From the sequence record OZ035730.1: 40,216 bases of DNA; one strand, written 5' to 3'. This DNA is from Kayfunavirus CLBP1. The position numbers and the translations under genes were made by a program. The notes below the pieces were generated by a model. That model was not told the origin of the DNA, did not search any database, and saw only the letters and a list, made by a program, of their open reading frames with translations. This document shows, in pieces, positions 303-16,882 of the stretch (position 1 is its first letter; every line of letters starts with the position of its first letter).

Positions 303-352
303 GTGTTAGACTCAAGGTCATTACTGTATGTAGTGGCCTTTATGGTTAACAC
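303..352 (+). promoter_or_regulatory. RNase III-type processing hairpin (R18.5-like), copy 1 of 3
   Basis: Upper stem AAGGUCAUUAC (313-323) pairs with GUAGUGGCCUU (329-339) including two G.U pairs, loop UGUAU; lower stem GUGUUA (303-308) with UAACAC (347-352). Same element recurs at 9753 and 16839 with compensatory changes. Confidence 0.6.
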
Positions 353-403
353 TAACTAGTGGAGGAGACTCTACGTGAAATCTGATAAACCGGGAGGGCA
401 CCT

Positions 404-856
404 ATGCTCGAATTTCTAAAGAGAGCGGCTCCGTGGTTACTCGCAGCAGTGATGTTTGCTGGGGGCTACCACACCGCTAACAATAAGTGGGAGGCTAAGG
501 TCAATGCAGAATACACCTCGAATCTTAAGGCATCGGAGGATACAAGGCTTGCTGTCCAAGCTGAAGTCAACAAAGTGTCCAAACGGTTTCAGGACGAAAT
601 GTCCTCGCTGGAAGGCAGCACTGATAGGATTATTGCTGACCTTCAGTCTGACAATAAGCGGTTGCGCATCCGAGTCAAACCTACGAGTGGAACCACGCAA
701 AGTGACGGTCGATGCGTCATTGATGGTTACGCCGAACTTGACGAACGAGATGCTAAACGTCTTATCGCCATCGGACTGAAAGGGGACTCTTGGATTAAAG
801 CACTACAGGATACTATTCGAAAACTTCAACAAGACAAGGAGAAAGACAATGGGTAA
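404..856 (+). CDS. Rz-like i-spanin (T7 gp18.5-like)
   Basis: 150 aa; SD GGGAGGG upstream; N-terminal hydrophobic segment LKRAAPWLLAAVMFAGG; motifs LEGSTDRIIADLQSDNKRLRIRVK and ELDERDAKRLIA match remembered T7 gp18.5. Confidence 0.85.
   Translation: MLEFLKRAAPWLLAAVMFAGGYHTANNKWEAKVNAEYTSNLKASEDTRLAVQAEVNKVSKRFQDEMSSLEGSTDRIIADLQSDNKRLRIRVKPTSGTTQSDGRCVIDGYAELDERDAKRLIAIGLKGDSWIKALQDTIRKLQQDKEKDNG
504..779 (+). CDS. Rz1-like o-spanin lipoprotein (gp18.7-like) embedded in +1 frame of gp18.5
   Basis: Embedded ORF contains hydrophobic stretch ALIGLLLTFSLTISGC with lipobox-like LTISGC followed by ASE; first ATG at 504 has SD GGGAGG. Track ORF 456 starts on TTG; true start uncertain. Confidence 0.6.
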   Translation: MQNTPRILRHRRIQGLLSKLKSTKCPNGFRTKCPRWKAALIGLLLTFSLTISGCASESNLRVEPRKVTVDASLMVTPNLTNEMLNVLSPSD

Positions 857-1640
857 TATTATTACTTTGAAAACTGACGTAGTTTGGCATTTTGCTACTG
901 GTACACCCTCTGGACTGAAGAACGCATCCGGTCACTTGTTATCTGGTACAATATACGTGAAAGTCCCAGCTAACGCCGAGTCTACAAGGATTACACTAAG
1001 CGACGGTACGTCTGCTACTGGTAATTTCTCCGATGGTGGCGGCTGGCCTCTACAATCAGGCAGTGTACGTCTGGAAGTGGTTGGTAACACAGAAGACGAC
1101 TTCCTTATTCTTAAAGTCACCAAGCTGAATGACAGTGGCGTCGGACTTGTTAAGGTAGAGTATACTTATCGGGAGTCACGTCCTGTATCCCACGCTGAGT
1201 ATTCTCTGGATACCTTCAACTGGTCAGGAACCCAAGTGTGTGCGGCTGGTCAGTTCACTAACCTAATGACTCTACCTTTAGTGAAGGGAGTGGATAGCGG
1301 CGTCGTTACTATCTCCGAAGGAAAGATGCTGTTCCCAGCTAAAGAGGGACTCAGTAGTGTAAACTTCGTCGTTCGGTTCGCTGGTGAGTTCCCTACAGCC
1401 TCAGCTCATAAGTGGCGATTGCAGCTTCGTAGACCAGATAACACTACCCTATCTTCCGTGACGGACACAGATGACCAGCAGTCATTCACCATTCGTGAGG
1501 CAGCCATCCATAGCTACATAGCTAATACAGACGACCCGTTCGTTACTACTGGCATCATGCTTGGCATTGAAGTTACCGGGTCTGAGGACCTTACTCTGTC
1601 CTCCCTGACTGTTCGCGTTGACTGCATCTTTAACTCTTAA
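849..1640 (+). CDS. Hypothetical protein (263 aa), no T7 counterpart at this position
   Basis: ATG with SD AAGGAG 7 nt upstream, overlaps gp18.5 stop by 8 nt, ends 12 nt before the large terminase start; phage-like codon usage; Ser/Thr/Gly-rich, no TM segment, no recognisable motif. Confidence 0.65.
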
Positions 1641-1651
1641 GAGGTGAAGCA

Positions 1652-14926: not shown

Positions 14927-16627
14927 ATGTCATACGATGACCAAGACGACGAGAGTGTCTTTCTGTATCACACCCAGTGTCCAGACTGTGGGTCCTCGGA
15001 TGCCAATGGTGTTTACTCAGACGGACACATGTACTGCTTCGCCTGTGACCCTTCAGTCGCATGGAAGAAAGGAGACATGGAGTTGACCGAGGGATACACA
15101 CCCTCAGGAGGTAGAAAGCAAGTGAGCAATCTGTTAACGTTCAGTGAGAACGCTGGACGATATGTCCCGCTACCAGCCCGCAGTCTCAGCATGGAGATAT
15201 GCAAGAAGTACAGCTACTGGGTGGGTAACATGGGTGGCAAGATGGTTCAGGTAGCTGATTATTACGACAGGTCCGGGACCAAGGTAGGGCAGAAAGTCCG
15301 AGACGCTGAGAAGAACTTCACGGCTATAGGTAGCGTCAAGTCTGACATGCTGTTCGGCTCTCAGCTCTGGAACGGTGGTAAGAAGATAGTCATCACCGAG
15401 GGTGAGATAGACGCCCTGTCTGTGGCTCAGGTGCAGGACGGTAAGTATCCAGTGGTATCACTTCCGTTAGGCTCCAAGTCTGCGAAGAAAGCGATGGCTG
15501 CTAACCTTGAGTACCTCGACCAGTTCGAAGAGATTATCCTGATGTTCGACATGGACGAACCGGGTCGTCAGGCCATTGAGGATGCAGCTCCAGTCTTACC
15601 AGCAGGTAGGGTCAAGGTAGCGTTCATCAACGGGTACAAAGACGCCAACGCTGCGCTTCAGGCCAAGGACTTCAAGGCCATCACTGATGCAATCTGGAAC
15701 GCTAAACCTTTCGTCCCGGCTGGCGTGGTATCAGCGGCAAGTCTGAAGGACCGAACACGAGAGGCAATGCTTAAGGCAGAGACTGAAGGTCTCATGTTCT
15801 CGTCATGCACAACACTCAACGCGATGACCCTAGGTGCGCGAGCTGGTGAGCTTATCATGGTGACTTCTGGGTCGGGCATGGGTAAGTCTACCTTCGTCCG
15901 TCAGCTCCTCTTAGAGTGGGGCAGAGGCGGTAAGCGTGTAGGCATGGCTATGCTTGAAGAGGCTGTAGAGGAAACAGTTCAGGACCTTATGGGTCTGGAC
16001 AATAACGTCCGTCTACGCCAGAGCAAGGAACTGAAGCAAGCCATCTTAGAGGATGGGCGGTTCGACGAATGGTACGACAAGCTGTTCGGAGACGATAAGT
16101 TCCACCTGTACGATTCATTCGCAGAGTCAGAGGAAGACACCTTGTTCGCTAAGTTAGGCTACATGGTGGACGGCCTTGACTGTGACGTCATACTGCTGGA
16201 CCACATCTCAATCGTTGTGTCTGGCATGGAAGATAACTCAGATGAACGTAAGACCATTGACCGCATCATGACCCGTCTCAAGAAGTTTGCGAAGACGAAG
16301 GGTGTGGTTGTCGTGGTCATATGCCACCTGAAGAACCCAGAGAAAGGTAAATCGCATGAAGAAGGGCGACCTGTTTCAATCACTGACCTACGTGGTTCTG
16401 GTGCTCTACGCCAACTGTCTGATACTATCATCGCACTTGAACGTAACCAGCAAGGTGATACTCCTAACATTGTTCAGCTTCGTCTACTCAAGTGTCGCTT
16501 TACAGGTGATACTGGGGTGGCTGGACACCTTGAGTACAACAAAACGACAGGATGGCTTGAACCGATTAGCTTCACTGGCAGCAGCGGAGAAGAGGATAGC
16601 GGCTCGTGGGAGGATACGGACTTCTAG
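14927..16627 (+). CDS. DNA primase/helicase (T7 gp4-like)
   Basis: 566 aa; zinc-ribbon N-terminus, TOPRIM region, helicase Walker [10 protein letters not shown]-terminal WEDTDF; collinear with remembered T7 gp4A. Confidence 0.97.
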
Positions 16628-16671
16628 GCGTGATATAGCTGATTATAAGAATTTTATGGAGGACACCATTA

Positions 16672-16836
16672 GTGTTAAAGAAACTTAAAGCTCGATACCA
16701 TCGGTTCATGTACAAATGGTGGAGCGAAGAAGCAACCTGCCTGTCGAACATTCTGGGAGACCAAAGGTTCGACTCTAAGGCATGGAAGAAAGCTAACCGG
16801 AAGTTTATGTATCACTTCTTGCGTACAGACTTCTAG
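16672..16836 (+). CDS. Hypothetical small basic protein (54 aa, GTG start)
   Basis: Hand-translated VLKKLKARYHRFMYKWWSEEATCLSNILGDQRFDSKAWKKANRKFMYHFLRTDF; GGAGG 9 nt upstream; non-ATG start. Confidence 0.25.
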   Translation: MLKKLKARYHRFMYKWWSEEATCLSNILGDQRFDSKAWKKANRKFMYHFLRTDF

Positions 16837-16838
16837 GT

Positions 16839-16882
16839 CTAGACTCAAGGTCATTCACATTGAGTGGCCTTTATGATTAGAC
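16839..16882 (+). promoter_or_regulatory. RNase III-type processing hairpin (R4.7-like), copy 3 of 3
   Basis: AAGGUCAUUCA (16847-16857) pairs with UGAGUGGCCUU (16861-16871), loop CAU; compensatory base-pair changes relative to copies 1 and 2. Confidence 0.6.

Follow-up and report, generated by a model that had tools for sequence, protein, structure and literature searches.

The DNA of Kayfunavirus CLBP1 considered here (sequence record OZ035730.1; 40,216 nucleotides, the whole of which is called the window) carries a hairpin-forming element at 303-352, 9753-9798 and 16839-16882, and the question is what these three repeats do. A preliminary description had placed them at the positions of the phage T7 sites R18.5, R1.1 and R4.7 and had read them as sites of mRNA processing by RNase III. 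The gene context fits all three positions, and the processing reading is supported by homology to T7 and T3, by a covariance model, and by position and strand; the elements are very probably RNase III processing signals of the T7 group that operate in polycistronic transcripts of the + strand, cleavage itself being predicted from homology. They are unannotated orthologues of the textbook T7-type RNase III sites, a class that is already well known.

The window is 100% identical (megablast) to Escherichia phage CLB_P1 (KC109329.1), in circularly permuted form. CLB_P1 is a T7 relative (Autographiviridae, Studiervirinae, Kayfunavirus) with all genes on the + strand and a T7-like gene order. The genomes used for comparison were those of phages T7 (NC_001604), T3 (NC_003298), K1F (NC_007456) and EcoDS1 (NC_011042). 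RNase III sites are without annotation in the CLB_P1 record, in the K1F RefSeq record, and in the first 14 kb of EcoDS1 examined. With gathering thresholds, Rfam had no match anywhere in the window, and a sensitive local scan of 250-420 gave none at E<=1; the hairpin class is apparently absent from Rfam 15.

Structure and covariation of the element

The three elements are present as described. A strict pattern, AAGGTCATNNN-loop-NNNGTGGCCTT (in full form AAGGTCAT-NNN-loop-NNN-GTGGCCTT), had three exact matches, all on the + strand, with 0.00 expected from 100 dinucleotide shuffles. The upper stems (AAGGUCAUUAC/GUAGUGGCCUU; AAGGUCAUGAC/GUCGUGGCCUU; AAGGUCAUUCA/UGAGUGGCCUU) comprise 11 bp in each copy, with U.G wobbles at stem position 5 and stem position 8 throughout; the apical three pairs vary double-sidedly among the copies (U-A/G-C/U-A; A-U/A-U/C-G; C-G/C-G/A-U), in agreement with the two G.U pairs and the compensatory differences reported before. 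The flanks 'TAGACTC ... ATGATTA' are conserved, as had been noted, and are more than conserved sequence: they pair as a lower stem of 7-8 bp that covaries among the three copies (GUGUUAG/UUAACAC; (A)GGAUUAG/UUAACCC(U); GGUCUAG/UUAGACU). Between the two stems lies an asymmetric internal loop with ACUC on the 5' side and (U/C)AUG(A/G) on the 3' side. The extents of the complete structures and of their parts are given in Table 1.

The three minimal structures fold at -18 to -21 kcal/mol, with z scores of -3.2 to -4.5. At all four sites found in the window (a fourth, diverged copy is described below), the minimum free energy and centroid folds both have an internal loop of 4/5 nt that separates a lower stem of 7-8 bp from an upper stem of 9-11 bp (z -2.9 to -4.5). 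The reverse complements, i.e. the - strand versions, are 3-10 kcal/mol less stable, because the conserved U.G pairs turn into C/A mismatches; from the conserved G.U pairs and the better folding of the + strand it follows that the structure belongs to the + strand RNA.

These properties bear on the alternative named in the preliminary description, that the repeats act at the level of DNA, be it as promoter or operator, as part of a replication origin, as a recombination or cassette junction, or as a cruciform. Site 2 indeed abuts a phage promoter, at the place of the primary origin region of T7 and T3, and the window/K1F homology breakpoints 5060, 5882 and 16907 lie in, or within 20 nt of, sites. 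A DNA-level role is nevertheless highly improbable, and is contradicted by the strand asymmetry, by the two U.G wobbles in every copy, in place of which a cruciform or the opposite strand would have C/A mismatches, and by the compensatory changes, which keep pairing and not sequence. All copies share a single orientation, that of transcription, and the phage promoter consensus is a different motif. A sigma-70 promoter scan gave nothing specific at the sites (one 9/12 match inside site 3, at chance frequency). The hairpins were also considered as insertion or recombination junctions, and this candidate was rejected: 3 of ~28 window-K1F breakpoint edges lie <=20 nt from a site, against ~5 predicted at random by a rough estimate, for which the intergenic DNA was taken as ~3 kb; there is no enrichment.

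For the analysis of covariation, a covariance model was built from the three window copies only (the three-copy model). A loose recruiting pattern (CTCAAGG-N12-40-CCTTNATG) returned almost only chance matches in unrelated contigs, and a stricter sequence pattern was used instead, with which T7-like contigs of ~38-44 kb were recruited from IMG/VR; T7, T3, K1F and the window were added. The three-copy model identified 125 sites in this set (99 distinct sequences), and a broader model was built from their alignment (the 125-site model). Standard pairs are formed in 97.2% of the alignment cells, and double-sided changes occur in 15 of the 18 pairs. The covariation score is 0.424, compared with 0.176 in shuffles (0 of 500 reach 0.424) and 0.008-0.054 in slid controls. 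All seven lower-stem pairs and the apical pairs, which are unconstrained by the recruiting pattern, covary, and RNAalifold predicted the same two helices de novo from the alignment.

Table 1. Hairpins of RNase III type, half-site and phage promoters in the window, with orthologues, folding energies and covariance-model scores
Feature	Coordinates	Strand	Position	Parts	K1F orthologue	EcoDS1 orthologue	Fold, kcal/mol (z)	Three-copy model	125-site model
Site 1	303-352	+	R18.5 position, at the junction of gene 18 (small terminase) with gene 18.5 (Rz-like)	lower stem 303-309/346-352; internal loop ACUC 310-313 / UAUGG 341-345; upper stem 314-324/330-340; apical loop 325-329	36444-36503		-20.8 (-4.5)	85.5 bits	68.1 bits
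Site 2	9748-9799	+	R1.1 position, with small ORF '1.1' (which follows the RNA polymerase gene) on the 5' side and genes 1.15/1.2 on the 3' side	lower stem 9748-9755/9792-9799; internal loop 9756-9759 / 9787-9791; upper stem 9760-9770/9776-9786; apical loop 9771-9775	5564-5623	6046-6105	-18.1 (-3.2)	83.8 bits	
Site 3	16836-16883	+	R4.7 position, between gene 4.3 and the HNH ORF 5' of the DNA polymerase gene	lower stem 16836-16842/16877-16883; internal loop 16843-16846 / 16872-16876; upper stem 16847-16857/16861-16871; apical loop 16858-16860	12851-12908	13039-13096	-18.8 (-4.0)	74.6 bits	65.5 bits
Site 4, diverged	5885-5935	+	R0.5-like position, early region between genes 0.351 and 0.36	lower stem AGUGAUAG/AUUACCACU; upper stem 5897-5905/5914-5922	1764-1822	1488-1546	-16.8 (-2.9)	26.5 bits, E 4.5e-4 (filters off, match span 5881-5939)	37.1 bits, E 3.4e-7
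Half-site	5068-5092	+	3' arm remnant of R0.3-position hairpin	UAUAGCGGCCUG-ACUGA-UAGUCACU	1028-1086		no matching fold (+0.6)	no match	no match
Phage RNA polymerase promoter	9738-9751	+	abutting site 2	core CTATCACTATAGGA; predicted +1 at G9749 (from T7 consensus)					
Phage promoters	3512, 6662, 9738, 11784, 12736, 21770, 24591, 25600, 30282, 37565	+		core CTATCACTATAGG(A/G)					

Counterparts in related phages and diverged copies

All four sites are intergenic and on the coding strand, and each hairpin lies 25-60 nt 5' of a start codon, with the Shine-Dalgarno sequence outside the structure. The four junctions (18/18.5; post-gene-1 promoter/1.15-1.2; 4.3/pre-gene-5; 0.351/0.36) are syntenic with named T7/T3 sites, and K1F and EcoDS1 have orthologous hairpins of nearly identical sequence at the same four junctions (63-68 bits).

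The T7 RefSeq record contains no RNase III features; we take the T7 site coordinates to be those of Dunn & Studier 1983, and they were checked by the sequence found there and by model matches. At these coordinates, R1.1 reads ACTCAAGGTCATTCGCAAGAGTGGCCTTTATGATTG, R0.5 reads TAGACTCAAGGTCGCTCCTAGCGAGTGGCCTTTATGATTA (parts TAGACTCAAGGTCGC...GAGTGGCCTTTATGATTA) and R4.7 reads CCTCAAGGTCGCC...GGTGGCCTTCATGAA; R0.3, R1.3, R6.5 and R18.5 are variants of the same element. In direct comparison, the core of the window elements is near-identical to T7 R1.1, R0.5, R4.7 and R0.3, and the core common to the window and the T7 sites compared (R0.3, R0.5, R1.1, R4.7, R18.5) is ACUCAAGGUC ... GUGGCCUU(U/C)AUGA. 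T7 R1.1 and R0.5 share with the window elements the extended core (U)AGACUCAAGGUC...GUGGCCUU(U/C)AUGAUUA, the lower stem, the asymmetric internal loop and an upper stem of ~10-11 bp with U.G wobbles; they also agree with them in strand, lie between genes and are associated with phage promoters. Differences are found in the upper stem of R1.1 (10 bp with a 4-nt loop, versus 11 bp with 3-5 nt loops in the window) and in number, with four detectable sites in the window and ten in T7; the T7 sites are cleaved, whereas cleavage in CLB_P1 is predicted by homology.

The search of related phages with a model built from the three copies, which had been proposed as a check, recovered known sites. In T3, for which ten stem_loop features named 'RNase III recognition site' are curated, the three-copy model matched 7 of the 10 (R0.5, R1.1, R4.7, R6.5, R0.3, R18.5 and R1.3, E<=0.014); the R1 site was found at E~1, the atypical R3.8 and R13 were the only ones missed, and there were no other matches below E 0.05. 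In T7, the same model matched six sites (R0.5, R1.1, R18.5, R6.5, R4.7 and R0.3, E<=4e-4). Among the ten T3 sites, R6.5, in which a promoter lies within the loop, and R3.8 and R13 have no counterpart in the window.

At site 1, the downstream flank is collinear with the T7 leader from R18.5 to gene 18.5. Site 2 follows a small ORF after gene 1 that is comparable to T3 gene 1.05, and its EcoDS1 orthologue lies directly 3' of an annotated phage promoter. The T3 R1.1 hairpin likewise overlaps the end of promoter phi1.1, after an extra small gene following gene 1 (phi1.1 5984-6006, R1.1 6003-6053), and promoter and hairpin also overlap in T7 (phi1.1A 5848 and R1.1). With a start at G9749, transcripts from the promoter at 9738 would begin inside the lower stem of site 2; this is the sole promoter that directly abuts an RNase III hairpin, and the window has no site of the T7/T3 R6.5 type, with a promoter in the loop. 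Site 3 begins at the final base of the gene 4.3 stop codon TAG (16834-16836). An HNH-endonuclease-like ORF (16900-17301, annotated 'gp7.7-like') is inserted ~17 nt 3' of this hairpin, at a junction that is variable in the group: K1F, EcoDS1 and T3 run from the hairpin directly to gene 5, and T7 carries gene 4.7 there.

Three copies had been counted; these stand as placed, and the total is four, with a diverged copy (site 4) in the early region. Its core (GAGGUCAUC...GGUGGCCUCAAAGA) has changed and is still recognised by the 125-site model (Table 1). The upper stem GAGGUCAUC/GGUGGCCUC keeps both U.G wobbles and has G-C in place of A-U as its first pair, and the lower stem has one A/C mismatch; the K1F orthologue differs by one-sided, pair-preserving changes, and its lower stem is fully paired. 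Pairing is likewise kept where the EcoDS1 orthologue differs. The CLB_P1-specific insertion (versus K1F) of gene 0.351 (5746-5881) ends exactly at the 5' edge of site 4. In EcoDS1, an ORF annotated as 'unknown product' (1493-1636) starts within the orthologous hairpin and may be a miscall.

At the R0.3 position only a 3' half-site is left in the window, and the position was rejected as a functional site; the remnant is not expected to be a substrate because its 5' arm is missing. The K1F counterpart is intact (46.6 bits with the 125-site model; fold -25.8 kcal/mol, z -4.0) and lies just 5' of gene 0.3. Homology between the window and K1F starts inside the loop of this hairpin, just 3' of the inserted gene 0.15 (4722-5042). 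K1F has a further early-leader hairpin at 705-769, whose counterpart is absent from the window.

Scans of the window with both models gave nothing above noise beyond the four sites, and no equivalents of R1, R1.3, R3.8, R6.5 or R13 were found with the 125-site model. Further sites were looked for at the R1, R6.5, R13 and R0.3 positions, and three candidates besides the half-site were examined and rejected: the region after the promoter at 6662-6675, which starts ACUCAAGGUCU but has a weak fold (z -0.2) and scores only 10 bits; a short palindrome at 21805-21830 that resembles the lower stem and has no upper stem (~10-13 bits, E>1); and 30542-30587, within gene 13 (E ~0.4-1.7). The comparison shows a retained but smaller complement of T7-type sites in Kayfunaviruses (CLB_P1 four, K1F six, T7 and T3 ten each), and also that sites of the early region were gained or lost together with gene-cassette changes.

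Predicted processing and alternative functions

Each intergenic element folds in RNA as two coaxial helices (7-8 bp lower and 9-11 bp upper, ~two helical turns), and by homology with T7 R1.1 the resulting quasi-continuous helix would be bound by RNase III of the E. coli host. A single phosphodiester would be cut on the 3' side of the internal loop, at CCUU(U/C)AU/G (the slash marks the cut); cleavage would be limited to this one bond by the distortion that the internal loop imposes on the target site. The upstream mRNA would be left ending in the stable upper hairpin, which would shield it from 3'-5' exonucleases, and the 5' end thus created on the downstream mRNA would lie 25-60 nt ahead of the following start codon. 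Alignment of the sites to T7 R1.1 (CCUUUAU/GAUU), whose cleavage coordinate we take to be 5887 as in Dunn & Studier 1983, predicts cuts at 343/344, 9789/9790, 16874/16875 and near 5925/5926; the exact bonds cut and the effect on mRNA stability are both put forward by analogy. Many cellular RNase III substrates, e.g. rRNA precursor stems, are cut on both strands of a regular helix. Cellular E. coli substrates such as these stems and the rnc leader are processed by the same enzyme and also need ~two helical turns of double-stranded RNA (PMC1540722, PMC3867540). They have no sequence motif in common with the phage sites, in which cleavage is restricted to a single cut by means of an internal loop. 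For T7, it is established that the mRNAs are processed at ten such sites (PMC6938266) and that R1.1 RNA is cut at one phosphodiester into 47-nt and 13-nt products (PMC4858673). Internal loops limit cleavage to one strand, and the hairpin left at the 3' end gives protection from 3'-5' exonucleases (PMC1540722, PMC3867540).

The hairpins might also work without cleavage, as binding-only or RNase III-independent structures that stabilise 3' ends or tune downstream translation. Binding-competent, cleavage-resistant variants of R1.1 exist (PMC1540722), T7 grows in rnc hosts (PMC6938266), and each hairpin is close upstream of a start codon. We regard such a role as very unlikely here: in three sites the four loop-adjacent pairs (AAGG/CCUU) and the loop sequences are identical to those of T7 R1.1, which is cleaved efficiently; the Shine-Dalgarno sequences are not part of the structure; and nothing sets the sites apart from those of T7 or the curated ones of T3.

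Each site is also a GC-containing hairpin followed by UUUAU, as might be expected of a terminator or pause site for host or phage RNA polymerase. A scan of 1-20000 for terminator-like hairpins (a GC-rich hairpin, then a tract with >=5/8 U) returned none of the sites, whose tail is UUUAUGAU, and the terminator-like hairpins of the window look different, e.g. the long GC stem with U8 at ~27034-27076. In addition, there are essential genes 3' of the sites, and no promoter lies near site 1 or site 3. Termination or pausing is thus an extremely improbable function for these hairpins.

Several observations weigh against RNase III processing or reduce its weight. T7 grows without RNase III (PMC6938266), and the functional importance of the sites may therefore be modest. 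In contrast to T7, CLB_P1 lacks an ORF as large as that of the T7 gp0.7 kinase, which stimulates RNase III by phosphorylation (the early region, 4271-6750, has no ORF >162 amino acids), and stimulation of RNase III in the T7 manner is therefore unlikely in CLB_P1. Site 4 is weaker than the other copies, with its 9-bp upper stem, one lower-stem mismatch and z of -2.9. The covariation alignment was fitted to the model, and most loci were recruited by a pattern that fixed CTCAAGGTC...GGCCTTNATG, so that the conservation of these core columns is partly by construction and only the lower stem and the apical portion of the upper stem are free of this bias. Literature searches on RNase III sites in CLB_P1, K1F or Kayfunavirus found no experimental data.

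Within the processing signals, ACUC and UAUGA of the internal loop and UAG/UUA of the lower stem are very strongly conserved across paralogous sites and genera. Chelladurai et al. are said to have found in 1991 that the conserved sequence element of these signals is dispensable for accurate cleavage in vitro, and for this reason a second function of the conserved loop and stem sequence is conceivable, such as recognition by a phage factor or coupling of processing to translation of the following gene; gene conversion within the genome, by which the copies would stay alike, is a further candidate. We consider a second function unlikely, and nothing in the data speaks for it. One variant, the sites as cassette-insertion junctions, was covered by the breakpoint comparison of the window with K1F, which showed no enrichment.

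Promoters, neighbouring features and annotation

The phage promoter motif occurs in 14 copies at <=3 mismatches, with 3.4 expected; five copies are exact, all on the + strand. After the promoter upstream of the capsid gene, a strong 5'-terminal hairpin is found at 25606-25645 (GGGAGACC...GGUUUCCC; it contains GACUCAAGG), which resembles the T7 phi10 leader stem-loop and whose fold is not of the RNase III type. The hairpin at ~27034-27076, downstream of the capsid gene region, is probably a Tphi-like late terminator, and a second strong hairpin at 11721-11752 may represent the early terminator TE.

Position 1 of the window corresponds to base 35949 of KC109329 and position 4271 to its base 1; the permutation junction lies at 4270/4271, and the window is 2 bases shorter than the linear CLB_P1 record. 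As a circular permutation of a linear record, the window contains the physical genome end and the terminal-repeat region in its interior. Low-stringency blastn of the window against K1F gave many long off-diagonal matches of 66-72% identity at non-homologous positions (e.g. window 7564-9431 versus K1F 3759-5632, and window 7990-9429 versus K1F 3-1439), which are probably artefacts of composition or of the scoring scheme.

The assignment of the hairpins to a known class opens no new question. Its use lies in annotation: as the sites are unannotated in the records examined and have no Rfam family, the 125-site model could mark RNase III sites automatically across Studiervirinae genomes, and it could avert spurious ORF calls over such hairpins, e.g. 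ORF 1493-1636 of EcoDS1.

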